12,007 bases of DNA, from IMG/VR virus record IMGVR_UViG_2698536414_000003, one strand, 5' to 3'. Below the pieces are notes generated by a model. That model made no database searches. It was not told the DNA's origin and saw nothing but the letters and a program-made list of their open reading frames with translations. The stretch comes from a virus (taxonomy: Duplodnaviria > Heunggongvirae > Uroviricota > Caudoviricetes). Positions 1-12,007 of this stretch are shown here, piece by piece (position 1 is the first letter of the stretch; each line of letters starts with the position of its first letter). The translations under genes and the position numbers were made by a program.

Positions 1-45
1 CCAGCTCTGAGCCTCAAGACGATCCTGAATGTAATAAGCGTTCAT
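1..45 (-). CDS. N-terminal 15 codons of an early-left gene that continues leftward out of the window; possibly lambda Ea10-like
   Basis: Minus-strand ATG at 43-45 reads [15 protein letters not shown] and runs off the window edge. The Ea10 resemblance is from memory only. Confidence 0.35.
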
Positions 46-120
46 GGCTGAACTCCTGAAAATGGCTGTGAAAATATCGCCCGCGAAATGCCAGGCTGAT
101 TAGGAAAACAGGAAAGGGGA

Positions 121-411
121 TTAGTGATTCAGGCCGTTACCGCGTCCGTCGAGAAAAACTTCCACGAGCAAATCACGGGTATAAGTGCGCTCGATGCCGC
201 GATGCAGATAAAGCCGTCCGCGTAAATTAGCTGATGCAGTCCAGGTACCATCTTTGTGTTTGACCAGCATTCCTGGCATGACCGCACCTCGATTAACGGT
301 CTGCGTTCCATAATGTTGATGAACCATAAAAACTCCTGCCCGTAAGCTGGGCTGCTGAACATATAGAGACTTCTGCGCGTATTCAGGCGGTGGATGGCCG
401 CCGGTTGTCAT
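121..411 (-). CDS. Hypothetical 96-aa protein, first gene downstream of the predicted PL (the position N occupies in lambda)
   Basis: Longest minus-strand ORF between PL and the next gene, about 190 nt downstream of the predicted PL start. It is basic and Gly/His/Arg-rich but has no recognisable N-type arginine-rich motif. An overlapping alternative frame exists at 129-362. Confidence 0.4.
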
Positions 412-599
412 AACTAAGCCGCCTCGTTGAAGCGACTAAGGTATGAAATGTTGAGTTAATTTCAGCTGGTCACACCGACGTTCACGCGTCCGTTTCACCC
501 CTCGCACTCCCCGAAGCCTGCTGAAATTCAAACTGCGGATCTAAGCGGTCATCGCAACGGTGAATCAGGTAGTTGCCGTATCGTTGTGTTGTTGCGATG

Positions 600-640
600 A
601 ACTTATTTAAAACTATAGTTGTTTTATCGTCAACAACAAA
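600..640 (-). promoter_or_regulatory. PL-like leftward promoter with overlapping operator (OL)
   Basis: On the minus strand: TTGACG (plus 628-633), a 17-nt spacer, then TTAAAT (plus 605-610). The spacer ATAAAACAACTATAGTT closely matches the PR spacer AAAAACAACCATAGTTT. Further GTTGTTTT/CAACAAC motifs lie at 616-660. Confidence 0.55.
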
Positions 641-773
641 AGTTGTTTTATTGGTTGTTTTAGATATAACTGGTTGTATTTAGGATGGATTTATTTTGTG
701 ACTTGCATCGCACAGCGATAACTGAAGCGAGGTCGTGGTGGTTTTTTGAACGGTTTGTGTGATGAGGGGAGGC

Positions 774-801
774 AAAAGAAAACCCGGCACGACGGCCGGG
801 G
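774..801 (-). terminator. Intrinsic terminator closing the repressor-cargo operon
   Basis: Minus-strand hairpin CCCGGCCGTCGTGCCGGG (plus 783-800) followed by TTTTCTTTT, immediately after the stop of the 805-1668 gene. Confidence 0.6.
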
Positions 802-804
802 AAA

Positions 805-1668
805 TCATTTCGCATCTACAATAAATAACCTGTTTATCTGGCCTTTTTTAACAGTAGCCTTTGCGGTTATAGTGAATACTGCAGATGGATCACCTTTGGT
901 TGATATATATGCACTAAGAGCTCTAATATACGGGTTATTCTTCTTTCCTGCAGCTGGATCGCTAATTTCAGCAGTGATTCTCTTTTTTGAGTCATCACCA
1001 TCTAAAATTATTTTAGCTGTCATATTTTGTGCATCAAATTCTGTAAGAAAAGCACGATACTCACGAAGACCGAGAACTTCATCATCATCAAGCCTATCAA
1101 TTTCAGCTTTATCTCTCTCGTTAACTTTTAGAAGGCAGCCGTCAACATTTGTTGCAACACTTATCTGATCGCAAGTATTACCAATAGGTGATACTGCCTG
1201 CCTTACAGAGGGGCGAAGCTCTACAGCCATTCGGTCAATCAAAGAGATCAACTTATCAATGGTTCCAGCATCCTTGTTTCCTAGTGCCTCTATGGCCTTT
1301 TCAAGTGACTGCTGCAAAGCTTTCATTTCATCTTTCTTGTTAGAATTTCTCGCAAAAATATATTGTAGTATTGCGCCAAGTATAGTTGCGGCGATCCCCG
1401 AGAACAACTGGTTCTGAGTGGCGAAGTTAAGAACTGCTTCAAGAGTAAAGCAGTTAGCTTTTGCTTCGCGTGCGTAAACCTTAACTTCCTGATAATTAAT
1501 GTATTTACTATATTTTTGTGTAACAGAGAAAGAAGCTGCTGTTGAGAGAACTTTAGAAAAACCCTTTAGGGATTCTCCTAGGCAGTTCAAATCTATTTCA
1601 TGATTTAAAGCATCTTTTCCGTCATACCTAAGAGAGATTTTTATATCCTGTAAAGCGTCACAATCCAT
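805..1668 (-). CDS. 287-aa hypothetical protein with one central transmembrane helix; immunity-region cargo at the rexAB-equivalent position; candidate exclusion/abortive-infection gene
   Basis: Clean ORF with a GAGAG Shine-Dalgarno 66 nt downstream of the repressor stop. The DNA is visibly more AT-rich than its flanks. Hydrophobic segment [18 protein letters not shown] at about residues 88-105 (plus 1354-1407). I recognise no family. Confidence 0.7.
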
Positions 1669-1734
1669 AAATCGCTCTCGTCTAATTCTAATTAAATTTA
1701 CTATCCCCTAAACGACTCATCAGCACAGTACTGA

Positions 1735-2424
1735 TTATCCATGTTTCCTGTACGTCTGGGGCATGCTCCCAATAACCTTACCGAAGATGAACACCCGGTT
1801 CATCTCGTCTTTCTCGATCGGGTCCCACGGTGAGTAGCTCTTGTTATCAGAGATAACCAGCAGCTTATCCTTCATCATTTGCAGGCGCTTTACATGGGCT
1901 GTGTCGTCGTACAGAAACGCATAGATACCATCACCGTCGAAAGATTTAACCGTGATATCAACGAACAGCAGATCACCTGGTTCGATCGTTCCTGACATGC
2001 TGTCACCACGCACGTTAATGATGCGGATATTTTCCGCCTTCCTACCATCGAACATGTGACGAGCATCGTCAAACGAGTACTCAACCGAGCGTAGAACTTC
2101 TACAAACTCACGGTTGATGACTCCCGGCCCAGCACTGACTTCTATATCAAGAACGTCAATCTTGAAGTATTTGGAATGGCTGACAGTTGATTGTATTGGT
2201 TGCACTGTACTGTCTGACATATTTCCAACGCCAGAAGATAACCATTCTGCGCGCACACCCAAAGCGTTCGCGATCTCCACGATTTTAGTTGTTTGATTAG
2301 CTTTCCCTGTTTCGATTTTCTGAATAGCAGCCTGGCTAACCCCGACCAAATCCCCAAGCGCCTTTTGTGTAAGGCCTCGCGCTAATCTGGCTTCTTTAAG
2401 TCTTTCTGAGAGTGTTGTTTTCAT
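1735..2424 (-). CDS. cI: CI-type repressor (N-terminal XRE helix-turn-helix, C-terminal S24 LexA-like autopeptidase)
   Basis: HTH segment LTQKALGDLVGVSQAAIQKIETGK; Ala-Gly cleavage site in VSAGPG; GDSM serine motif and HVKRL lysine. Start taken at the ATG at 2424 (MKTTLSERLKEA), which looks leaderless as in lambda PRM; the longer ORF to 2490 would run through the operator. Confidence 0.85.
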   Translation of the reverse strand: MKTTLSERLKEARLARGLTQKALGDLVGVSQAAIQKIETGKANQTTKIVEIANALGVRAEWLSSGVGNMSDSTVQPIQSTVSHSKYFKIDVLDIEVSAGPGVINREFVEVLRSVEYSFDDARHMFDGRKAENIRIINVRGDSMSGTIEPGDLLFVDITVKSFDGDGIYAFLYDDTAHVKRLQMMKDKLLVISDNKSYSPWDPIEKDEMNRVFIFGKVIGSMPQTYRKHG

Positions 2425-2510
2425 AGTCCAAATGTACAACCAAGGTTTTATTCCATCAAACGAAAATGGTTGTTGACTAAAAACAACCATAGTTTTAATC
2501 TTGATTCAAA
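2425..2510. promoter_or_regulatory. OR region with divergent PRM (leftward) and PR (rightward) and three operator-like sites
   Basis: PR: TTGACT 2473-2478, 17-nt spacer, TAATCT 2496-2501. PRM on the minus strand: TTGATG (plus 2455-2460) and TACATT (plus 2431-2436) six nt before the cI ATG. Inverted repeat ATGGTTGTT (2466-2474) / AACAACCAT (2482-2490), plus ACAACCAAGGTTTT at 2435-2448. Confidence 0.6.
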
Positions 2511-2528
2511 TTAACCACGGAGGTTGTT

Positions 2529-2759
2529 ATGAACCCAGCTATCAAAACAGCGATCAATATCGTTGGTTCACAAAAGAAACTGGGCGCTGCTTGCGAAGTT
2601 TCACAGCAGGCCGTCTATAAGTGGCTTCACAACAAAGCAAAGGTATCCCCTGAACATGTCGGCAGCATTGTTACGGCTACTGGTGGAGTAGTGAAGGCAT
2701 ACCAGATTCGCCCGGATCTTCCGAAGTTGTTTCCACACACCGAAAAGAACGCAGCTTAA
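2529..2759 (+). CDS. cro: Cro/YdaS-family HTH regulator (Cro analog)
   Basis: 76 aa, GGAGG Shine-Dalgarno at 2519-2523, divergent from the repressor. HTH-like segment KKLGAACEVSQQAVYKW and an RPDL motif as I recall for YdaS-type Cro proteins. Confidence 0.8.
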   Translation: MNPAIKTAINIVGSQKKLGAACEVSQQAVYKWLHNKAKVSPEHVGSIVTATGGVVKAYQIRPDLPKLFPHTEKNAA

Positions 2760-2771
2760 ATTTCCATTTCA

Positions 2772-2784
2772 CGCTCTTTAACAA
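2772..2784 (+). promoter_or_regulatory. boxA-like element (nutR candidate)
   Basis: CGCTCTTTAACAA between cro and the next gene matches the boxA consensus. No clear GC-rich boxB hairpin follows. Confidence 0.45.
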
Positions 2785-2828
2785 TAAGCAATCAACTTAA
2801 CAGTCAATTCAAACTAAAGGAGTCAATT

Positions 2829-3368
2829 ATGCAACCACTTACATACCAACAGACTAGCGGATTTAGCCCGACTGCGGTGATAAATCGTTCTCAAACAAAA
2901 CAGGTGCCAGGCCACGAAAAAATCCGTGATGCCGTCCGCGCCTGGTCGGCTGTAGATAATCAGGATGTCGTTGCCACACTCATTGTGAATGAGTATCGGG
3001 AGCAGGGCGGCGGCACCATCGATTTCCCTGATGATGTCAGCCGTGCACGCCAGAAGCTGTTCCGCTTCCTCGATAACAAATTCGATTCTGAAAAATACCG
3101 AAATAACGTGCGTGAACTGACCCCGGCAATTCTGGCGGTACTACCGCTGGAATATCGCGGTTACCTGGTTGAGCAGGATAGCTTCATGGCTAGGTTGGCT
3201 GAAATGGAAAAGGAACTCAGTGAGGCAAAACAGGCTGTCATTCTCAACGCACCACGCCACCAGAAACTGAAGGAAATTAGTGAAGGTATTGTGTCGATGT
3301 TTCGTGTGGACCCAGATCTGGCTGGTCCATTGATGGCGATGGTTACTACCATGCTGGGGGCGATATGA
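2829..3368 (+). CDS. YdaT-like protein at the cII position
   Basis: 179 aa with AAGGAG Shine-Dalgarno. Motifs EYREQGGG and LTPAILAVLP resemble what I recall of Rac YdaT, which follows YdaS. Family call is from memory. Confidence 0.5.
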   Translation: MQPLTYQQTSGFSPTAVINRSQTKQVPGHEKIRDAVRAWSAVDNQDVVATLIVNEYREQGGGTIDFPDDVSRARQKLFRFLDNKFDSEKYRNNVRELTPAILAVLPLEYRGYLVEQDSFMARLAEMEKELSEAKQAVILNAPRHQKLKEISEGIVSMFRVDPDLAGPLMAMVTTMLGAI

Positions 3369-3454
3369 CAGGTTCAGAAATGGCGAAAGCCGGTCTGCTG
3401 GAACAGAACCGACTTTCAGGTGCAAATCGTAACACACTCATTGCGGGAGGAATT

Positions 3455-4384
3455 ATGGCAAACACTGCTGAGATATTCAATTTTCCAGTGCCGGATGCGG
3501 CACAAAAGGAGCCGCGCGTGGCAGATCTCGATGATGGTTATACGCGCATTGCAAATGAGTTGCTGGAAGCTGTGATGCTGGCCGGATTAACACAGCACCA
3601 GCTTCTGGTCTTCCTAGCTGTCATGCGCAAAACATATGGCTTTAATAAAAAACTGGATTGGGTGAGCAACGAGCAACTGTCCGAATTGACCGGGATATTG
3701 CCGCACAAGTGTTCTGCTGCAAAAAGTGTTCTGGTAAAGCGTGGGATTCTTATTCAGAGCGGGCGGAATACCGGCATTAATAATGTGGTCAGTGAATGGT
3801 CAACATTACCCGAATCAGGTAAGAAAAATAAAGTTTACCTGAAAGAGGTAAATTTACCTGAATCAGGTAAAAAAAGTTTACCCAAATCAGGTAAAGACGT
3901 TTACCCGAATCAGGTAAACACAAAAGACAAACTAACAAAAGACAATATAAAACCTTTTTCGTCCGAGAATTCTGGCGAATCCTCTGACCAGCCAGAAAAC
4001 GACCTTCCTGTGGAGAAACCAGATGCTGCAATTCAGAGCGGCAGCAGGTGGGGGACAGCAGAAGACCTGACCGCCGCAGAGTGGATGTTTGACATGGTGA
4101 AGACCATCGCGCCATCAGCCAGAAAACCGAATTTTGCAGGGTGGGCTAACGATATCCGCCTGATGCGTGAACGTGACGGACGTAACCACCGCGACATGTG
4201 CGTGCTGTTCCGCTGGGCATGCCAGGACAACTTCTGGTCCGGTAACGTGCTAAGTCCGGCCAAACTCCGCGACAAGTGGACCCAACTCGAAATCAACCGT
4301 AACAAGCAACAGGCAGGCGTGACAGCTAGCAAACCAAAACTCGACCTGACAAACACAGACTGGATTTACGGGGTGGATCTATGA
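3455..4384 (+). CDS. O: Replication initiator O (lambda O-like, iteron-binding)
   Basis: GGGAGG Shine-Dalgarno then ATG at 3455; starts MANTAEIFNF...VADLDDGYTRIANELLEA, like lambda O (MTNTAKILNF...VADLDDGYARL). Ori iterons lie inside the gene; stop overlaps the P start (ATGA). Confidence 0.85.
   Translation: MANTAEIFNFPVPDAAQKEPRVADLDDGYTRIANELLEAVMLAGLTQHQLLVFLAVMRKTYGFNKKLDWVSNEQLSELTGILPHKCSAAKSVLVKRGILIQSGRNTGINNVVSEWSTLPESGKKNKVYLKEVNLPESGKKSLPKSGKDVYPNQVNTKDKLTKDNIKPFSSENSGESSDQPENDLPVEKPDAAIQSGSRWGTAEDLTAAEWMFDMVKTIAPSARKPNFAGWANDIRLMRERDGRNHRDMCVLFRWACQDNFWSGNVLSPAKLRDKWTQLEINRNKQQAGVTASKPKLDLTNTDWIYGVDL
3806..3958. repeat. Replication origin: five iterons plus an AT-rich tract inside O
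   Basis: TTACC(C/T)(G/A)AA(T/A)(C/G)AGGTAA copies at 3806-3822, 3835-3851, 3854-3870, 3878-3894 and 3901-3917, each with inverted ends, followed by an AT-rich stretch at 3918-3958. Confidence 0.8.
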
Positions 4385-5082
4385 AAAACATCGCCGCACA
4401 GATGATTAACTTTGACCGTGAGCAGATGCGTCGGATCGCCAACAACATGCCGGAACAGTATGACGAAAAGCCGCAGGTACAGCAGGTAGCGCAGATCATC
4501 AATGGTGTGTTCAGCCAGTTACTGGCAACTTTCCCGGCGAGCCTGGCTAACCGGGACCAGAACGAACTGAACGAAATCCGCCGCCAGTGGGTTCTGGCTT
4601 TCCGGGAAAACGGGATCACCACAATGGAACAGGTTAACGCAGGAATGCGCGTAGCCCGTCGGCAGAATCGACCATTCCTGCCATCACCCGGGCAGTTTGT
4701 TGCCTGGTGCCGGGAAGAAGCATCCGTTACCGCCGGGCTGCCAAACGCCAGCGAGCTGGTTGATATGGTTTACGAGTATTGCCGGAAACGTGGCCTGTAT
4801 CCGGATGCAGAGTCTTATCCGTGGAAATCAAACGCGCACTACTGGCTGGTTACCAACCTGTATCAGAACATGCGGGCCAATGCGCTGACTGATGCGGAAT
4901 TACGGCGCAAGGCTGCCGATGAACTGGCCTGTATGACAGCGCGAATTAACCGTGGTGAGGCGATACCTGAACCAGTAAAACAACTTCCTGTCATGGGCGG
5001 TAGACCTCTAAATCGTGCACAGGCTCTGGCGAAGATCGCAGAAATCAAAGCTAAGTTTGGGCTGAAAGGAGCAAGTGTATGA
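4381..5082 (+). CDS. P: Replication protein P (helicase loader), near-identical to lambda P
   Basis: 233 aa beginning MKNIAAQMINFDREQMRRIANNMPEQYDEKPQVQQVAQIINGVFSQLLATFPASLANRDQNE, matching lambda P as I recall it. Confidence 0.9.
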   Translation: MKNIAAQMINFDREQMRRIANNMPEQYDEKPQVQQVAQIINGVFSQLLATFPASLANRDQNELNEIRRQWVLAFRENGITTMEQVNAGMRVARRQNRPFLPSPGQFVAWCREEASVTAGLPNASELVDMVYEYCRKRGLYPDAESYPWKSNAHYWLVTNLYQNMRANALTDAELRRKAADELACMTARINRGEAIPEPVKQLPVMGGRPLNRAQALAKIAEIKAKFGLKGASV

Positions 5083-5372
5083 CGGGCAAAGAGGCAATTA
5101 TTTATTACCTGGGGACGCATAAGAGCTTCTGTGCGCAGGACGTTGCCGCGGTAACAGGCGCAACAGTAACCAGCATAAATCAGGCTGCGGCTAAAATGGC
5201 GCGGGCAGGAATCTTGGTCATTGATGGTAAGGTCTGGCGAACGGTGTATTACAGATTCGCTACCAGGGAAGAACGGGAAGGAAAGGTGAGCACTAACCTG
5301 ATTTTTAAGGAGTGTCGCCAGAGTGCCGCGATGAAGCGGGTGTTGATGGTTTGGGGGAGGGTAGGGGTATGA
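5079..5372 (+). CDS. ren: Ren protein
   Basis: 97 aa MTGKEAIIYYLGTHKSFCAQDVAAVTGATVTSINQAAAKMARAGILVIDGKVWRTVYYRFATREEREGK, matching lambda Ren; ATGA overlap with P. Confidence 0.85.
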   Translation: MTGKEAIIYYLGTHKSFCAQDVAAVTGATVTSINQAAAKMARAGILVIDGKVWRTVYYRFATREEREGKVSTNLIFKECRQSAAMKRVLMVWGRVGV

Positions 5373-5569
5373 GCATGATGGATTTCGCAGAAACTAAAAA
5401 GGCTATCGACGCCATCACAACCGACTGGTCTATCCGAGGACCGTATCACGAAGACGACGGGAAATATTACGCCTTGCTTCGTGGAGAGTGGGTTGGTGGC
5501 GGGTATATCGGAAAACGGAAAGCCCTTGATGCCATTCTCGAAAAGTTAATCCAGGAGGCCGCCCAATGA
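5369..5569 (+). CDS. Hypothetical 66-aa nin-region protein
   Basis: ATG overlaps the ren stop (ATGA at 5369-5372). The longer ORF from 5312 would lie inside ren. Confidence 0.5.
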   Translation: MSMMDFAETKKAIDAITTDWSIRGPYHEDDGKYYALLRGEWVGGGYIGKRKALDAILEKLIQEAAQ

Positions 5570-5778
5570 GCAACATCGACAAACCAATGACAAACCGTGA
5601 ACTGGTGGATGCCGCCATTGAATTGGCCGGAGAGTTTTATGCGATGCAGGGCTATTCGCATCGTCCTGGCTTCAAGTATTGGCAATCTCCGCACCCGCAT
5701 GAGCGCCTGTGCTTTGAAATGGTCTTGTGTGGCATTCGAAACCATTCGCGGCTCAGATGTAATGGACGCCGTATCTGA
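5566..5778 (+). CDS. Hypothetical 70-aa Cys/His-containing protein, possibly frameshifted near its 3' end
   Basis: ATGA overlap with the upstream gene. Its first 19 nt are identical to the start of the 5794 gene (MSNIDK). The +1 frame ORF 5597-5797 ends in an ATGA overlap with the 5794 start, suggesting the true C-terminus may be in that frame. Confidence 0.4.
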   Translation: MSNIDKPMTNRELVDAAIELAGEFYAMQGYSHRPGFKYWQSPHPHERLCFEMVLCGIRNHSRLRCNGRRI

Positions 5779-5793
5779 GTTGGAGGATGAAGA

Positions 5794-6207
5794 ATGAGCA
5801 ACATCGACAAACGCGCATTACGTGAAATCGCTGAGGCAGCAGTTGGTGCACATGAGCGCCTTAGTGTTATGCCGCCTGATGACATTTTCGATATCTCACT
5901 GGCAGAAGGAACTCAGCTTGATGCAGATATCACTGCCTTGAACGCGCTGAACTCCGTAGCCAACCCAGCCACAGTGCTGGCGCTGCTGGATGAGCTGGAA
6001 GCCAAAGACCAGAGGATTGCTGTGCTGACCGAATCGCTCAAGCAGACGGTTTCAGGATACAAATCCTGCCTGCGTACCGGACATGAGCGCATTCTTGACC
6101 TTGGCGGTGACTGTGACGCGCCAGAAGTGATGATTGCAGGCAATCCTGACATTCAGCAGGCGCAGAAGCTGATCGCCGCCGCATCCGGTAAAGGAGAGGC
6201 ATCATGA
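5794..6207 (+). CDS. Ead/Ea22-like family protein (tentative)
   Basis: 137 aa, GGAGGA Shine-Dalgarno. The LALLDELEAKDQRIAVL coiled-coil segment resembles what I recall of Ead/Ea22-like prophage proteins. Confidence 0.55.
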   Translation: MSNIDKRALREIAEAAVGAHERLSVMPPDDIFDISLAEGTQLDADITALNALNSVANPATVLALLDELEAKDQRIAVLTESLKQTVSGYKSCLRTGHERILDLGGDCDAPEVMIAGNPDIQQAQKLIAAASGKGEAS

Positions 6208-7010
6208 GCACTATTACCAAACAATGGCTGCAGCAGAAAATTGCCGACATGGAAGCAGCCAGAGATGAAATCCCGTTCGGTCTGGACGAAGGCGACAGCA
6301 ACACGCTGGCGGCACTGCGTATCGCGCTGGCATCGCTCGAAGCGGAGCCTGCCATTCACCGGTGGCGTCGTGTGACCTCTGAGCCATACGGCCCCTATCC
6401 TTGGCATTATGGTGATTTTATCGGCTTCTCAAAGCCCGTTGATGGGATTGAGGATGAGTATTTTTACTCCGCCCCGCCAGAGCCAGCCAATGCCGAAACC
6501 GTAGCCTGGATGTGGTCACACAGGAAACACCCGAGCGAAGTCACGCTTGTTCGCCCTGAAGATGATGAGAGAGCGGAGGGTGCTCACTGGTCTGGCTGGA
6601 GTTGTCAGGCGCTTTATGCAGCACCGCCAGTTCCGGTATCTGTGCCCACATTCGAGAAATGGTGTGAGTTGACTGAGCAGAAACCTGTCGGATGGGTGCG
6701 TGATGCTATGAAAGAAGCGTATGACGGATGCCGCGACGCCATGCTTCAGGGGGCCGAAAAAGCCGAGTCGCCCACCACCATGCAGACCGCGCCAGCCCTA
6801 GATTCTTCGCCAAAAATTTCCGAGTCGCCCGTCAGCAACTCTCCGGTGATTCCGGATGGTTGGGTGCTGGTTCCTAAGGAGCCAACTCCAGAAATGCGTG
6901 AGGCGTACCATCAGGCGCAGGAAGAGTGTGAAGATGGCGGTAGATTATGGAGCCCAGACCACCAATGGAAGGCCATGATCGCAGCAGCACCGCAGCAGGA
7001 GGCGAAGTGA
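6204..7010 (+). CDS. Hypothetical 268-aa acidic protein with a Pro/Ser-rich linker
   Basis: ATGA overlap with the upstream gene and AGGAGAGG Shine-Dalgarno. No family recognised. Confidence 0.6.
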   Translation: MSTITKQWLQQKIADMEAARDEIPFGLDEGDSNTLAALRIALASLEAEPAIHRWRRVTSEPYGPYPWHYGDFIGFSKPVDGIEDEYFYSAPPEPANAETVAWMWSHRKHPSEVTLVRPEDDERAEGAHWSGWSCQALYAAPPVPVSVPTFEKWCELTEQKPVGWVRDAMKEAYDGCRDAMLQGAEKAESPTTMQTAPALDSSPKISESPVSNSPVIPDGWVLVPKEPTPEMREAYHQAQEECEDGGRLWSPDHQWKAMIAAAPQQEAK

Positions 7011-7061
7011 TTATGTCGTGACAGCATAATTGCGATGTCAACGATAAGCAGAGGTTTGAAA

Positions 7062-7256
7062 ATGAAATCACAATCACCAGTGCAGCATGAAGTTAACATC
7101 GACGGCAAAGAGTATGTTGTCACAGTAGTCCAAACCGGCAAGTCAACGTGGAGGGCATGGGGAGATTCCTGGGGGCGCCATATAGTCGAAACAGGTTCTA
7201 GCGAACATAGCGCGCTTTCTCATTGGAAAGCAAAAGCTTTAGTTATGAATGGGTAG
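7062..7256 (+). CDS. Hypothetical 64-aa protein
   Basis: AGAGG Shine-Dalgarno 7 nt before the ATG at 7062. The earlier ATG at 7035 has no Shine-Dalgarno. Confidence 0.45.
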   Translation: MKSQSPVQHEVNIDGKEYVVTVVQTGKSTWRAWGDSWGRHIVETGSSEHSALSHWKAKALVMNG

Positions 7257-7285
7257 CGCGGAAACTTTGAAGGTATAATCCCCTC
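7250..7285 (+). promoter_or_regulatory. Candidate promoter for the 7306 gene
   Basis: Perfect -10 TATAAT at 7274-7279 about 27 nt before the ATG; the -35 is weak. Confidence 0.35.
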
Positions 7286-7305
7286 AAATAATCGAGAGGG
7301 TTTTT

Positions 7306-7815
7306 ATGTCTGGTTGGGATAACGGTATAGATGCAGTTTCTGCGATTGCAGCTATCGCATCTGCGGTAGCAACTTATTTAGCATGGCGATCCTCAGAAGC
7401 TAGCAGGGCCACATCCGAAAAAGCTTTGCAGTTGCAAGGAAAGCAGTATTTGTACGAGACATTAAAAGCTTGCGCTGAGAGAGCGAATTCATACTCAAAA
7501 GGAAAGAAAGGGGCTGACTGGAGCTTTCATGACGCAGCCAATATTGTTCGATGTTTGAACATGGCAATGGGGAGCATAATAAATTACTCAGATACCAACA
7601 ATCAGGATGCAATGAAAGGTCTGAAGCAATTCTTTATTAGCCAATTAAACATGGAGCTTTTTGAAGAGCTCAACTATGAGGTTGGGCCTGATGCCTTCTT
7701 TCACGGAGAGGAGCTAACCAGCATGACGAGCGATATTTACTCGCAGTGGTTAAACATTATTTCATTCTTTAACCTCATGATTGTCACAGATGATGACCTC
7801 GCCGATGAAACATAG
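7306..7815 (+). CDS. 169-aa hypothetical membrane protein (N-terminal transmembrane helix), low-GC cargo
   Basis: GAGGG Shine-Dalgarno. N-terminal hydrophobic helix IDAVSAIAAIASAVATYLAW. More AT-rich than neighbours and followed by a 187-bp non-coding gap. Confidence 0.65.
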   Translation: MSGWDNGIDAVSAIAAIASAVATYLAWRSSEASRATSEKALQLQGKQYLYETLKACAERANSYSKGKKGADWSFHDAANIVRCLNMAMGSIINYSDTNNQDAMKGLKQFFISQLNMELFEELNYEVGPDAFFHGEELTSMTSDIYSQWLNIISFFNLMIVTDDDLADET

Positions 7816-8002
7816 CTTGATTGATTTTCCATAATCAACCCGCCATAATCATGTCATCGGAGCCTGAACAACTCCGGTGACTTCTGCGCTAAACGGGGAC
7901 GTTTATGCGCACATACAATCCAACCTCTCTTCTCCATTCACAGATGCAGAAATGCACCTGCGATATTTTGCATCCAGCGTTTGATCTCTGCGGAGGTGAA
8001 GC

Positions 8003-8458
8003 GTGAACCTCCCACAAGATGGTATCAAATTGCATCGCGGTAACTTCACCGCTATCGGTCGGCAGATCCAGCCTTATCTGGAGGACGGCAAATGCTTTCG
8101 CATGGTGCTTAAACCGTGGCGCGAGAGACGCAGTCTTTCCCAGAATGCACTCAGCCACATGTGGTACAGCGAAATCAGTGAATACCTCATCAGCAAGGGT
8201 AAAACGTTCGCTACTCCAGCTTGGGTAAAAGATGCTCTCAAACACACATATCTCGGTTATGAAACCAAAGACCTGGTTGATGTCGTAACCGGTGATATCA
8301 CCACTATCCAGTCGTTACGCCATACCTCCGATCTTGATACCGGAGAGATGTATGTCTTCCTGTGTAAGGTTGACGCCTGGGCGATGAATATTGGTTGCCA
8401 CCTGACTATTCCACAGAGCTGCGAGTTTCAGCTGCTGCGCGACAAGCAGGAGGCGTAA
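8003..8458 (+). CDS. ybcN: YbcN-like protein
   Basis: 151 aa, at the head of the ybcN-ninE-ybcO-rusA-ylcG order I recall from the DLP12 prophage. Confidence 0.7.
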
Positions 8459-8628
8459 TGGCTACACCGCTTATTCGTGTCATGAACGGACACATCTACA
8501 GAGTACCAAATCGTCGTAAGCGTAAACCTGAGCTGAAGCCATCCGAAATACCAACACTGCTCGGATATACCGCCAGCTTGGTTGATAAAAAATGGTTGCG
8601 ACTGGCAGCAAGGAGGAGTCATGGCTGA
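8458..8628 (+). CDS. ninE: NinE
   Basis: 56 aa [56 protein letters not shown]; TAATG overlap with ybcN. Confidence 0.75.
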   Translation: MATPLIRVMNGHIYRVPNRRKRKPELKPSEIPTLLGYTASLVDKKWLRLAARRSHG

Positions 8629-8911
8629 TTTGAGAAAAGAAGCGCGTGGTCGGGAATGCCAGGTAAGAATCTCTGGCGTATGTAATGGCAACCCTGAAAC
8701 GTCTGTACTGGCACATATCCGGCTGACTGGATTGTGCGGCACCGGTACGAAACCGCCAGACCTGATTGCCACCATTGCATGTTCTGCCTGCCACGACGAA
8801 ATCGACCGTCGCACGCATTTTGTTGACGCTGGATATGCAAAAGAATGCGCGCTGGAAGGTATGGCGAGAACGCAGGTTATCTGGCTGAAAGAGGGGGTAA
8901 TTAAGGCGTGA
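8621..8911 (+). CDS. ybcO: YbcO-like protein (putative nuclease)
   Basis: 96 aa from the ATG at 8621 with AGGAGG Shine-Dalgarno; Cys/His-rich. Confidence 0.7.
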
Positions 8912-9270
8912 ATACTTACCACATCACACTACCCTGGCCGCCGAGCAATAACCGCTACTACCGCCATAATCGAGGGCGCACGCACATCAGCGCAGAAGGG
9001 CAGGCATACCGCGATAACGTCGCCCGAATCATTAAAGGCTCAATGCTGGATATCGGTCTGGCTATGCCTGTGAAAATCCGCATTGAGTGCCACATGCCGG
9101 ATCGCCGTCGCCGTGACCTGGATAATCTGCAAAAAGCCGCTTTTGACGCACTCACTAAAGCAGGTTTCTGGCTGGATGATGCTCAGGTCGTTGATTACCG
9201 CGTTGTGAAGATGCCTGTTACCAAAGGTGGGAGGCTGGAACTGACCATCACTGAACTGGGAGATGAATGA
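8908..9270 (+). CDS. rusA: RusA Holliday junction resolvase
   Basis: 120 aa [26 protein letters not shown]...[32 protein letters not shown], close to E. coli RusA. GTG start overlapping the ybcO stop. Confidence 0.9.
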
Positions 9271-9407
9271 TGTTTGAGTCTTATATGGCAGAACGTCTTC
9301 GCCGCCGCTGGGTGCGCCTGCGCTTATATCGTTTCCCCGGTTCTGTTTTGACCGATTACCGAATACTGAAGAGTTACGCCAAAACCCTGACAGGAGCAGG
9401 AGTATGA
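9267..9407 (+). CDS. ylcG: YlcG-like small protein (46 aa)
   Basis: Not in the ORF track. Hand-translated: [49 protein letters not shown] overlapping the rusA stop. Confidence 0.65.
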
Positions 9408-9492
9408 AGTCAGAGATAACAATCAACTAATACTGTTTTGTTGATTTTTGCTTGTAATTGGCGTTTTGGTCTGATTTTTGTGGAGTAAGTTG

Positions 9493-9927
9493 ATGCGTGA
9501 TATTCAGATGGTTCTTGAGCGTTGGGGGGCGTGGGCGGCTAATAATCATGAAGATGTGACCTGGTCGTCCATTGCCGCCGGATTTAAGGGACTGATCCCC
9601 GAAAAAGTAAAATCACGTCCACAGTGCTGTGACGATGATGCGATGGTGATATGCGGGTGCATAGCCCGCCTTTACCGGAACAATCGCGATCTGCATGACT
9701 TGCTGGTTGATTATTACGTGTTGGGGGAGACGTTCATGGCGTTGGCACGGAAACATGGGTGCTCTGACACCTGTATAGGTAAACGCCTTCACAAAGCGGA
9801 GGGGATTGTTGAAGGCATGCTGATGATGCTGGGAGTGAGGCTTGAGATGGATCGGTATGTTGAGCGTGAATTGCCGGGAGGGAGAACCTCTGTATTTTAT
9901 CAGCGAAAAAATAGTTTACGATCGTAA
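9493..9927 (+). CDS. Q: Late-gene antiterminator Q (phage 82 / 933W-type)
   Basis: GGAG Shine-Dalgarno then ATG at 9493 ([19 protein letters not shown]), Cys-rich zinc-binding-like segment, followed by terminators and the tRNA cluster. Confidence 0.8.
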
Positions 9928-9972
9928 AAATCTGCATATCATGATAAGAGTGGTTACATTGCCACGCAGTCG

Positions 9973-9997
9973 AACCCGCCGATGCGCGGGTTTTTTT
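9973..9997 (+). terminator. Intrinsic terminator downstream of Q
   Basis: Stem CCCGC / GCGGG with a 6-nt loop, followed by seven T. Confidence 0.55.
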
Positions 9998-10177
9998 GTA
10001 CCCCGAATCCTGTGAGCTATACGGAAAGTACACAGAAAGGAAGGTGCGACCGTAATTAATAACAAAATCTTAAAAATCGCATATAGCACTATTAGTTTTC
10101 TAAATATTGTATATTTTAAGTATTGCAGGATAACCCTGTAACGAAGTTTGCGTAACAGCATTTTGCTCTACGAGTTT

Positions 10178-10206
10178 GCCAGCCTCCCCCAGTGGCTGGC
10201 TTTTTT
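10178..10206 (+). terminator. Strong intrinsic terminator (tR'-like)
   Basis: 7-bp stem GCCAGCC / GGCTGGC with a 9-nt loop, followed by six T; preceded by an AT-rich promoter-like region at 10040-10140. Confidence 0.6.
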
Positions 10207-10223
10207 ATGTCCGTAGCGTCAAA

Positions 10224-10328
10224 GCAGCAATGGCGCTGGGGCGTCGTGCAATTGGCGTTGAGCTGGAGAGCGGGCGTTTTGAGCAGACGGTCAGGGAAGT
10301 TCAGAATGTAGTCAGTCAGAACGGATGA
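10224..10328 (+). pseudogene. Possible 3' remnant of a DNA methyltransferase gene
   Basis: The frame ending at the TGA at 10326-10328 encodes SVKAAMALGRRAIGVELESGRFEQTVREVQNVVSQNG, resembling the C-terminal motif of amino-methyltransferases. No start codon or upstream catalytic motif; the frame runs through the terminator hairpin. Confidence 0.3.
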
Positions 10329-10368
10329 TATTGCAGAATTAGTTACGTACCGTTATTATCCTGCGCCC

Positions 10369-10444
10369 GGCCCTTTAGCTCAGTGGTGAGAGCGAGCGAC
10401 TCATAATCGCCAGGTCGCTGGTTCAAATCCAGCAAGGGCCACCA
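10369..10444 (+). tRNA. ileZ: tRNA-Ile (anticodon CAT, ileX-like)
   Basis: Cloverleaf folded by hand: 7-bp acceptor GGCCCTT / AAGGGCC, D-stem GCTC/GAGC, anticodon loop CTCATAA (CAT at 10402-10404), T-loop TTCAAAT, CCA encoded. Near-identical to E. coli ileX as I recall it; the CAT anticodon alone cannot exclude Met. Confidence 0.85.
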
Positions 10445-10451
10445 TCACATA

Positions 10452-10528
10452 CCGCCATTAGCTCATCGGGATAGAGCGTCAGCCTTCGAAGCTGGCTGTG
10501 CGGGGTTCAAGTCCCCGATGGCGGTCCA
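10452..10528 (+). tRNA. argN: tRNA-Arg (anticodon TCG)
   Basis: Acceptor CCGCCAT / ATGGCGG, anticodon loop CTTCGAA (TCG at 10486-10488), T-arm CGGGG TTCAAGT CCCCG, CCA encoded. Confidence 0.8.
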
Positions 10529-10541
10529 TTATCAGCATCAT

Positions 10542-10618
10542 GCGTTGTTAGCTCAGTCGGACAGAGCAATTGCCTTCTAAGCAATCGGTCACTGGTTCGA
10601 ATCCAGTACAACGCGCCA
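10542..10618 (+). tRNA. argO: tRNA-Arg (anticodon TCT)
   Basis: Acceptor GCGTTGT / ACAACGC, anticodon loop CTTCTAA (TCT at 10576-10578), T-loop TTCGAAT, CCA encoded. Confidence 0.85.
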
Positions 10619-10631
10619 TATTTATTTACTT

Positions 10632-10655
10632 GGCTCGCTTCGGCGGGCCTTTTTT
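10632..10655 (+). terminator. Intrinsic terminator after the tRNA cluster
   Basis: Stem GGCTCGC / GCGGGCC (one G-U pair) with a TTCG tetraloop, followed by six T. Confidence 0.6.
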
Positions 10656-10702
10656 GTATCTGCGCCACGCCCGGCGCATATCAACCACAGAGCCTTTCGG
10701 GG

Positions 10703-11218
10703 GTGAGCTTACGGAGTGGTCAGTGTGACTTTCTCTGTGGGCAGATCGCTCCCGGGCGTTGGCTCACCCACCCAAAGGAACGTCACGATGTTTGTATTTT
10801 TGGTAAAAAAGCCCGCCGAGCGGCAGTGGAAATTAAAAAGTTTGAGAAACGTGATCTGGCACAGGCGGTTATTAATGCTGCCTATCTGGTGGCCTATGCA
10901 GATGGTGAATGTGAGGCTTCAGAGAAAGTGAAGATCGAGCAGGTCTTGCGTAACCAGCCTGCGTTGTCCGCGTTTACGTCAGAAATTAATGCGATTAGCG
11001 CAACCATTATCGGTCAGCTGGATACGAACTTTAAAACTGGTCGTCGAGCGGCATTGCGTGAAATTGAAGATGTGAAACACGATACGCGTGAAGCGGAAGA
11101 TGTGCTGGATGTGGCGGTGGCCATTGCGGAGGCAGACGGCGAAATTGAGCCGGAAGAGCGCAAGGTGCTGGAAGAGATTGCCGGTGTTCTGGGTCTTCGT
11201 CTGGAGAATCACCTGTGA
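10703..11218 (+). CDS. TerB-like domain protein; start uncertain (possible -1 frameshift from the ATG at 10788, or a GTG start near 10826)
   Basis: Two ADG-containing motifs typical of TerB-like domains (LVAYADGECEASEKVKIEQVL and VAIAEADGEIEPEERKVLEEIAGVLGL). The frame has no internal ATG; the only ATG with a good Shine-Dalgarno (AAGGAA, ATG 10788) is in another frame. Confidence 0.55.
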   Translation: MSLRSGQCDFLCGQIAPGRWLTHPKERHDVCIFGKKARRAAVEIKKFEKRDLAQAVINAAYLVAYADGECEASEKVKIEQVLRNQPALSAFTSEINAISATIIGQLDTNFKTGRRAALREIEDVKHDTREAEDVLDVAVAIAEADGEIEPEERKVLEEIAGVLGLRLENHL

Positions 11219-11382
11219 CGGTAAAACTGCGCCTGGCTGTGGCTGCACTCCTGCTGTTTCTGGTGGTGATGGTGGATTTCACCAGCAGAATCATGTCGGT
11301 GCTGGCGGATGGGGTGCTGGTCTGCGGCATTGTGGTATTGCTGTGGCCGGTGATAAAAAGAAACAGCCTGCATAATGCTTGA
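11215..11382 (+). CDS. 55-aa small membrane protein with two predicted transmembrane helices
   Basis: Not in the ORF track. Hand-translated: VTVKLRLAVAALLLFLVVMVDFTSRIMSVLADGVLVCGIVVLLWPVIKRNSLHNA. GTG start overlaps the TerB-like stop (GTGA), with GGAGA Shine-Dalgarno 7 nt upstream. Confidence 0.45.
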   Translation: MTVKLRLAVAALLLFLVVMVDFTSRIMSVLADGVLVCGIVVLLWPVIKRNSLHNA

Positions 11383-11583
11383 TTTTTTTATTTGCTGTTT
11401 ATTAAAAACACTTCTGCATGGTGAATCCCCCTGTGCGGAGGGGCGATCAGCAACCAGGTATATGGGATAATCGCGGATTCAGGTGCTGATACTGAATTCA
11501 CCGGGAGGCACCCGGCACCATGCTTTGCCACAAAAGTGTTGTTTCTGTTTTTCTCAAACTATCATCGTTATCCCTTTATTTCC

Positions 11584-11610
11584 GGCTGCGCATGGCGTGG
11601 CCTTTTTTTT
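11584..11610 (+). terminator. Candidate intrinsic terminator before the nanS-p-like gene
   Basis: Imperfect hairpin GCTGCGC ATG GCGTGGC followed by eight T. Confidence 0.4.
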
Positions 11611-11696
11611 ACGACCAGCCACTGGCAGATGGCCATCCTGTAATTTGATTCCGGTTCCGGCTTTTTAACTCTGTTCCTGTACACGGGAGAAATTCG

Positions 11697-12007
11697 ATGT
11701 CGATTAAACATTATGATGTTGTCAGGGCGGCGTCGCCGTCAGACCTTGCGGAAAAGCTGACACACAAACTGAAAGAGGGCTGGCAGCCGTTTGGTAGTCC
11801 GGTGGCCATAACCCCTTATACCCTGATGCAGGCGATTGCAGCAGAAGGTGATGTGGTGGTCAGTGGTGCAACTGAGCCGGATTGGTACTACGTCATCGTA
11901 CTGGCCGGGCAGTCCAATGCTATGGCTTACGGTGAAGGGCTTCCGCTGCCGGATTCATACGATGCTCCGGATCCGCGCATTAAACAGCTGGCGCGCCGCA
12001 GTACAGT
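11697..12007 (+). CDS. 3'-truncated start of a NanS-p-like esterase (SGNH-type hydrolase)
   Basis: GGGAGA Shine-Dalgarno then ATG at 11697; MSIKHYDVVRAASPSDLAEKL... and a GQSNA motif. Resembles, from memory, the esterase gene downstream of stx in Stx phages. Runs off the window. Confidence 0.6.
   Translation, partial: MSIKHYDVVRAASPSDLAEKLTHKLKEGWQPFGSPVAITPYTLMQAIAAEGDVVVSGATEPDWYYVIVLAGQSNAMAYGEGLPLPDSYDAPDPRIKQLARRST

Follow-up and report, generated by a model that had tools for sequence, protein, structure and literature searches.

Short "boundary sequences" at the gene junctions of lambdoid phages have been proposed as sites of homologous exchange at which modules are re-assorted; PMC3029335 gives this account and credits the proposal to Clark et al. 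2001 (HK620) and to Susskind & Botstein 1978. In the Ea22 proteins of these phages the N-terminal coiled-coil part is conserved, the C-terminal domains are divergent, and K/RGE is the common ending (PMC7093339). For Red-beta a minimum of about 30 base pairs (bp) is quoted, Red is favoured on short and diverged substrates, and De Paepe et al. 2014 reported traces of homology in 50-bp windows for about 30% of mosaics (PMC3945230). The present analysis concerns two adjacent genes in a viral DNA stretch of 12,007 nucleotides (nt; IMG/VR record IMGVR_UViG_2698536414_000003), the whole of which is called the window in the following. The first of the two, gene 1, and the ead/Ea22-like gene behind it start with the same nucleotides, and the reading frame of gene 1 is disrupted. 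Very probably, gene 1 is a frameshift pseudogene and the repeated start consists of copies of a junction element of lambdoid phages that is used for gene exchange. Like the boundary sequences, this element is a short conserved patch at a gene boundary with unrelated genes on both sides, here in more than 100 contexts.

A repeated gene start in the window

The preliminary description of the locus had reported a 19-nt repeat at 5566 and 5794 that gives both genes the start MSNIDK. An exact scan of the window agreed with this: the 19-mer ATGAGCAACATCGACAAAC is present in exactly two copies, at 5566-5584 and 5794-5812, both on the plus strand, and no third copy was found in the window with three mismatches permitted. 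Two matches to ATGAGCAACATCGACAAAC occurred in none of 200 dinucleotide-preserving shuffles of the window; the repeated start is real and not a chance match. The true identity is 20 nt, with an A before each ATG, and the repeat stretches to 31 nt at 84% identity (5554-5584 vs 5782-5812), a segment that includes GGAGG 7 nt 5' of each ATG. Both ATGs are in the same frame, 228 nt apart, and each open reading frame (ORF) begins MSNIDK. The features at this junction, with protein lengths in amino acids (aa), are:

5369..5569, plus strand: upstream small ORF, 66 aa, hypothetical (WP_000062289.1 in near-identical prophages)
5551..5584, plus strand: junction element, full copy 1, CCAGGAGGCCGCCCA then ATGAGCAACATCGACAAAC, 34 nt
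5566..5797, plus strand: gene 1, a pseudogene whose intact form encodes a conserved small phage protein of 76 aa (phrog_4132, E=4.8e-37)
5577-5584 and 5588-5595, plus strand: direct repeat GACAAACC at the joint of the MSNIDK leader and the conserved core starting ATGACAAACC
5793..5812, plus strand: junction element, partial copy 2, 20 nt, AATGAGCAACATCGACAAAC
5794..6207, plus strand: ead/Ea22-like gene, 137 aa, MSNIDKRALREIAE... (PF13935 Ead_Ea22; WP_029488729.1)

Copy 1 holds a ribosome-binding site (RBS), GGAGG, at 5554-5558, the ATGA stop/start overlap and the MSNIDK codons. The GGAGG that serves copy 2 (5782-5786) is formed by conserved C-terminal L-E-D codons of gene 1, and copy 2 comprises only 20 nt because its 5' side, including this RBS, is made of gene 1's conserved L-E-D-E-E codons. 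The 66-aa ORF has the tail ...KLIQEAAQ, of the kind that usually makes up the upstream half of the junction element, and its stop, the TGA at 5567-5569, shares nucleotides with the start of gene 1 at 5566. The product of 5794-6207 scored 83.1 bits against PF13935 (cut-off 27; E=3.7e-23), which makes it a member of the Ead/Ea22-like family.

The junction element in other phages

IMG/VR was scanned for the 19-mer, which was found in at least 120 contigs; the continuations were read from these and from three loci of Escherichia coli genomes (L001-L003). The 19-mer is part of a widespread junction element, (A/G)GGAGGCCGCCCA-ATGAGCAACATCGACAAAC, that spans the RBS, the stop/start overlap and the MSNIDK codons and is the typical head of ead/Ea22-like genes. 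About 70 different continuations follow MSNIDK, the commonest being the Ead/Ea22 pattern (Q/R)ALRE(A/I/V)AE and many of them being unrelated. Single-linkage clustering of the downstream proteins was uninformative, since coiled-coil modules chain most of them into one cluster. In 108 distinct contexts of 370 nt, conservation was seen only from about -13 to +45 relative to the ATG, with the majority base at a background of about 30-45% elsewhere and of about 35% in the flanks. The upstream half, (A/G)GGAGGCCGCCCA, was conserved at 56-94% over the same 108 contexts although it lies outside the search pattern. On the upstream side the ORFs fell into 34 clusters, most with tails of the form (E/G)AAQ before the stop, and one upstream gene was joined at the element to differing downstream genes, gene 1 included. 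In about 100 complete E. coli genomes with other genes upstream, homology to the window's ead gene sets in at the element, some 7-15 nt ahead of the ATG. The 19-mer thus heads more than 100 different genes in viral contigs, with unrelated sequence on both sides, as had been proposed as a check at module boundaries elsewhere, and the contexts and neighbours of the element support the earlier suggestion that the repeated start is a joint between modules.

The coding part of the element was further analysed at synonymous positions, using 45 distinct starts encoding MSNIDK[QR]ALRE, which were chosen at the protein level and are unbiased as to codons. Non-majority codons amounted to 2 of 225 at codons 2-6 compared with 31 of 135 at codons 8-10 (A, L, R), whose residues are equally conserved. 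Given this near-invariance at synonymous sites, the element is conserved as nucleotides, beyond the need of the protein.

A second junction family is characterized by the start MTDITELAQ, preceded by GGAGGCCAGCC; the loci L322-L441 hold ATGACTGATATCACCGAACTGGC. It was found in at least 120 viral contigs of IMG/VR (105 distinct contexts) and shows many upstream tails and downstream continuations, like the MSNIDK element. At the 3' end of the ead/Ea22-like gene, window 6190-6220 (...GGTAAAGGAGAGGCATCATGAGCACTATTACC), where ...GKGEAS and the stop meet MSTITK..., looks like another recurrent boundary, and L047 and L132 likewise have the start ATGAGCACTATTACC (MSTITK) in repeated form. The exact 19-mer was also present in genomes of Aquirufa and other Bacteroidota (L209, L211, L212, L219, L229, L232), with about 4 chance matches expected in the 596 gigabases scanned; the recurrence in Aquirufa suggests an unrelated conserved gene and not the phage element.

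Gene 1 as a cassette between two element copies

In the window, gene 1 is flanked by the two copies of the element. Gene 1 with the start MSNIDKP has at least 10 different neighbours on its upstream side and at least 8 on its downstream side, the starts of the latter including MSNIDKRALREIAE, MSNIDKQALREEFR, MSNIYTLALRKAAE, MSNATKPTSKGK, MSKKAGWARP and MSNIDKRPFRADGG. Two further ORFs of 78-79 aa (L081, L121), unrelated and not of the Ead type, have the same leader and are located directly 5' of an Ead gene.

These gene combinations would have been made by recombination at the element, rather than by selection on translation signals alone. In this phage group the core of gene 1 is fused behind the six-codon leader, which makes gene 1 a cassette between two element copies. 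Most likely, the element would serve as a short patch of homology for crossovers between co-linear phage genomes, the exchange being catalysed by recombinases of the Red/Rad52 type, and the genes to its left and right would be re-assorted. A single crossover within the patch would swap everything to one side and would suffice because lambdoid genomes are co-linear; an unequal crossover between element copies would add or remove the cassette. What is seen here are the resulting combinations, from which we infer both the crossovers within the element and the way in which the leader was first fused to gene 1.

Several points weigh against this reading. The 5,426 complete E. coli genomes contained no exact empty site when queried with a synthetic junction that fuses the 66-aa ORF to the ead gene with nothing in between: matches across this junction came from the 25 genomes with gene 1 only, each in two pieces, and the 66-aa ORF was never found directly on this ead gene without gene 1. 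With 20 nt, the repeat is below the ~30 bp quoted for Red-beta, and the full 34 nt are present in copy 1 only. Homologous exchange does not account for how the leader and gene 1 were first fused, and the loci compared are phylogenetically non-independent. Finally, the RBS, the start and the first codons all lie within the element, and selection for coupled translation could keep it invariant. Recombination and selection on translation are not mutually exclusive, and the present data fit both.

Taken as an explanation in its own right, selection on expression would keep the repeat identical either as a portable optimal initiation region made up of an RBS, a coupled ATGA and A-rich, unstructured first codons, or because MSNIDK is a functional N-terminal tag, with unrelated genes having converged on the start or kept it; we consider this unlikely. 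The element does span exactly the RBS, the start codon and the first six codons, its synonymous sites are near-invariant as expected of a constraint at the RNA level, and the leader is disordered in a structural model (predicted local distance difference test, pLDDT, of 68 for residues 1-10), so that it is unneeded for the fold. However, the presence of 19 identical nt in dozens of unrelated ORFs is implausible by convergence without transfer of segments, and recombination is therefore needed in any case. Homologues of gene 1 have many other leaders or none, which argues that the peptide is not required, and the unrelated leader family MTDITELAQ behaves alike. Selection on expression does not exclude exchange at the junction element.

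Leaders that repeat the start of the next gene

A comparable repeat was seen in other phage backgrounds: there, too, the leader of gene 1 matches the start of the gene behind it, and the sequences have no relation to MSNIDK. The repeated sequence, the encoded start and the length are given for each:

L156 (1501-1736): aATGACTAAATCACTC, MTKSL, 16 nt
L201 (1483-1740): ACTGATATCACCGAA, MT(T)DITE, 15 nt
L159 (1486-1730): TGAGCATGACAACA, MSMTT, 14 nt
HK629/phiV10 type: AGTGAGCG, 8 nt, weaker

A length of 14 nt was reached by none of 2,665 control pairs, in which the leader of one locus was compared with the downstream start of another. The downstream genes of L156, L201 and L159 gave no match to PF13935. 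Tentatively, and with considerable doubt, the gene 1 family may repeatedly copy the start of its follower as its first 5-7 codons, in at least four unrelated versions, which would point to a regular process; more simply, gene 1 could have entered several arrays of genes with the same start. In such a process a small ORF might be placed precisely behind the initiation region of a resident gene, with this region regenerated downstream, and the placement would amount to a homology-driven, integron-like plugging of cassettes into the operon. Another possibility would be that adjacent initiation regions must be identical for co-regulation. No intermediates, either tandem gene 1 copies or Ead-gene 1 fusions, were present in 446 loci. 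The co-variation of leader and downstream start poses the small question of how new ORFs get wired into phage operons.

Applied to the window, the 20-nt repeat might be the scar of gene 1's arrival, by which the start of the recipient was duplicated. This would have occurred through an ORF-precise insertion into the first ead codons, or through a crossover after a tandem duplication that reached from gene 1 into the next gene as far as its codon 6. We judge a scar of this kind improbable. In line with it, the canonical upstream half GGAGGCCGCCCA is present at copy 1 only, which an insertion of gene 1 behind ead codon 6 would predict, and the leaders of L156, L201 and L159 repeat the next start at lengths that the controls did not reach. 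On the other hand, the repeat varies in length between backgrounds (14-20 nt), its ends lack inverted repeats, the neighbouring ORFs include nothing like a transposase, and the intermediates sought in the 446 loci are missing. The direct repeat GACAAACC also speaks against it. Strains SCU-104 and LR-62-2 have lost 11 nt, equal to one GACAAACC unit plus the spacer, by which the MSNIDK-initiated frame is destroyed, and microhomology at GACAAACC predicts this out-of-frame junction of SCU-104 and not the observed one. A scar would concern the origin of the repeat and is compatible with a later role of the element in crossovers.

Two specific routes were considered and rejected. A transposon-type target-site duplication is at odds with a repeat of variable length that lacks inverted repeats and a transposase domain; and a leader-core joint that arose by microhomology at GACAAACC would be out of frame, in the form seen in SCU-104.

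The frameshift in gene 1

Alongside the exchange reading of the repeated start stands the disruption of gene 1 itself, whose coding frame is frame 0 as far as 5722 and frame +1 beyond 5723. The disruption is defined by two positions:

5723, plus strand: inserted T (GG[T]CTTG, codon 53), the sole difference from strain S51 over window 5540-5830
5776..5778, plus strand: premature TGA in frame 0, 15 nt ahead of the next ATG, giving a 70-aa ORF

The inserted T is located outside any homopolymer run. In S51 the coding sequence is intact (231 nt; WP_000065088.1, 76 aa, ending ...EMACVAFETIRGSDVMDAVSELEDEE) and its TGA overlaps the next ATG. In the window it is the +1 frame that runs without a stop from 5597 as far as 5795-5797, where its TGA shares nucleotides with the ATG at 5794, and the C-terminus encoded in this frame, ...ACVAFETIRGSDVMDAVSELEDEE, is conserved across the homologues of gene 1. 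The insertion replaces the last 24 conserved residues by 18 unrelated ones and places the stop 19 nt further upstream. Translation of the ead/Ea22-like gene probably still works despite the shift, because the new stop lies just before the RBS of that gene.

The preliminary description had noted that the 5566 gene stops at 5778 and that the +1 frame runs on to a TGA at 5795-5797 over the next ATG, and the ORF reading bears this out. Its proposal that the first gene is frameshifted near the 3' end holds for the frameshift, which is one T relative to S51, but less so for the place, as codon 53 of 76 is about 70% along the gene. The coupled ATGA arrangement that it expected of an unshifted gene 1 is how the intact ORF of S51 ends. 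Alignment with homologues located the shift at 5723 with the conserved C-terminus in the +1 frame, and the 70-aa form, which might have been the conserved full-length protein, turned out to be a minority allele.

Gene 1 is carried by 25 complete E. coli genomes, 15 of them with an intact copy, 8 with the inserted T and 2 with another lesion. The eight with the T (QEC11-421, G1/2, G6/7, G8, 23AR0885, NCTC9112, WS0115A and N25) come from several projects and include the window's three closest relatives; the allele also occurs in viral contigs as 70-aa ORFs (L097, L106; protein cluster P0053, 16 members). Together with the 11-nt deletion, damaged copies are found in 10 of the 25 genomes, which suggests that gene 1 is dispensable in the prophage state. 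In SCU-104 (L124 1189-1220) and LR-62-2, this deletion yields ATGAGCAACATCGACAAACCGTGA, encoding MSNIDKP and a stop, and the Prokaryotic Genome Annotation Pipeline (PGAP) calls a shorter ORF with an internal start. For DNA identical to the window in G1/2 and NCTC9112, PGAP gives the label "hypothetical protein, frameshifted", exactly across 5566-5797. The lesion with the T is very probably an ordinary and recent single-base frameshift by which a dispensable prophage gene was inactivated. In annotation, 5566-5797 is one disrupted gene, as RefSeq has it for identical DNA, and not a 70-aa protein.

It is very unlikely that the extra T arose in sequencing or assembly and that the organism itself has an intact gene. 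Single-base indels are the commonest error of long reads and most relatives are without the T; however, the T lies outside a homopolymer and the allele is common to 8 complete genomes of several projects as well as viral contigs, and it is therefore an inherited mutation rather than an artefact of assembly. Programmed +1 ribosomal frameshifting that yields the full-length protein can be dismissed almost entirely, even with a +1 frame open from 5597 to the coupled stop, because near-identical relatives and all distant homologues use one frame and no slippery or stall motif is present at AUG GUC UUG UGU (5719-5730), and one recent insertion is all that separates the allele from the intact form.

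The gene 1 family

A large protein collection contained 70 relatives of gene 1. Most of them stand alone as proteins with a length of 66-87 aa, and their genera include Escherichia, Citrobacter, Klebsiella and Leclercia; the C-terminus of the +1 frame is conserved in more than 60 homologues of this length, and the 70-aa form makes up one small cluster (P0053) among them. Their conserved core reads MTNRELVDAAIELAG...HRPGFKYW.SPHP...MAC.AFE.IRGSDVMDA..LEDEE. The first 4-7 residues are highly variable (MSNIDKP, MSKQP, MNQEP, MTEQT, MAAKR, or none), and this variable leader is followed by a near-invariant M-T/S-N-R-E-L-V. In the window, the core has a start of its own, the ATG at 5588 (ccaATGACAAAC; ATGACAAAC, MTNRELV...).

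An AlphaFold model of a close homologue of gene 1 (mean pLDDT 90.6) is a three-helix bundle, with the helices at residues 10-27, 44-61 and 65-75 and a disordered leader. By this model, the shift is predicted to cut helix 2 (44-61) and to remove helix 3.

Searches for a function gave few leads. The repaired 76-aa protein had no match in Pfam at E<=0.1 and none in PADLOC, and the only PHROG match of gene 1 is phrog_4132, a family of unknown function. A profile search of gene 1 against PDB sequences returned nothing at E<=1, and Foldseek of the gene 1 model against the PDB nothing below E=0.5. Gene 1 is not a member of PF13935 and has only MSNIDK in common with the Ead/Ea22 family. The alignment to phrog_4132 at profile positions 106-178 of 179 had given rise to the idea that gene 1 is the C-terminal domain of a longer Ead protein; this was rejected, as the 446 loci held no fusion or tandem copies.

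Among cultured phages, HK629 (gp34) and phiV10 (p47) have homologues of gene 1 directly 5' of ead/Ea22-like genes. One further protein, P0069 from Salmonella enterica serovar Bijlmer (90 aa), is chimeric: an N-terminal part matching PF06163 is joined to ...RLCFEMACVAFETIRGSDVMDAVSE, which corresponds to the last third of gene 1 and points to a recombination breakpoint within this gene in another prophage.

Genetic context of the window

The window represents the early-right region, of the replication/nin type, in a lambdoid prophage of E. coli. The genes are arranged in the order O, P, ren, 66-aa ORF, gene 1, ead/Ea22-like gene and then more small cassettes, and overlaps of the ATGA type link ren, the 66-aa ORF, gene 1, the ead/Ea22-like gene and a 268-aa ORF in succession. 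The 66-aa ORF had no match in Pfam, PHROG or PADLOC. The neighbouring features are:

1735-2490, minus strand: cI-like S24 repressor (Pfam)
2529-2759: cro/YdaS-like gene (Pfam)
2829-3368: YdaT (Pfam)
3365-4384: replication protein O (Pfam)
4381-5082: replication protein P (Pfam)
5079-5372: ren (PGAP annotation in near-identical prophages; without a Pfam match)
6204..7010, plus strand: next cassette, 268 aa, MSTITKQWLQ..., ATGA overlap with the ead/Ea22-like gene after its ...GKGEAS end
8003-8458: NinB-like, weak (Pfam 20 bits, under the cut-off of 23.8; PGAP name in relatives YbcN)

RusA is also encoded to the right of O and P (Pfam). The closest complete genomes are those of NCTC9112, WS0115A and QEC11-421, in which window 1-9767 was matched at 99.0-99.4% identity; the best complete-genome match covered 81% of the window at 99.4% identity, and the set did not include the window itself. 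The resemblance to these three ends at 9767, and window 9768-12007 is a different mosaic segment. In NCTC9112, the nearest relative, exo, bet and gam are located directly left of the window's counterpart.

A 287-aa ORF with DUF7946 and DUF7947 domains (window 805-1668, minus strand) lies between the kil/gam side and the cI-like repressor; the prophage of strain G1/2 (L001), which is similar in other respects, lacks it. Lambdoid prophages often hold lysogen-expressed accessory genes in this slot.

Comparison with known systems

Both phenomena at this locus are ordinary for lambda-like phages, and the locus is a well-documented instance of known phenomena. The lesion of gene 1 is like the frameshift pseudogenes that PGAP flags in prophages: a single-base insertion in an accessory gene, marked "frameshifted" in RefSeq, with another lesion of this gene, of independent origin, in further strains and no notable difference.

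The ead/Ea22-like gene of the window is, like the members of its family (PF13935; lambda Ea22 and P22 Ead, of the exo-xis region), modular, and it ends in ...GKGEAS. It differs in its position, after ren in the rightward operon and not between exo and xis; gene 1, for its part, has only the first six codons in common with the family.

The likeness to the relaxed recombination of Red-beta as a source of mosaics (De Paepe et al. 2014) would consist in exchange at short, diverged homologies between temperate phages and prophages, and the nearest relative of the window carries exo, bet and gam. In contrast to that study, the patch here measures 20-34 nt and is near-perfect.

The difference from the boundary sequences is that the element occurs here twice, 228 nt apart, around a non-Ead cassette and with invariant synonymous sites. 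The locus is a clean, quantifiable example of the old boundary-sequence idea, in which a patch of 20-34 nt with near-invariant synonymous sites brackets a cassette that has many neighbours. It could be used as a test bed to distinguish whether such a patch is kept by recombination or by translational coupling.

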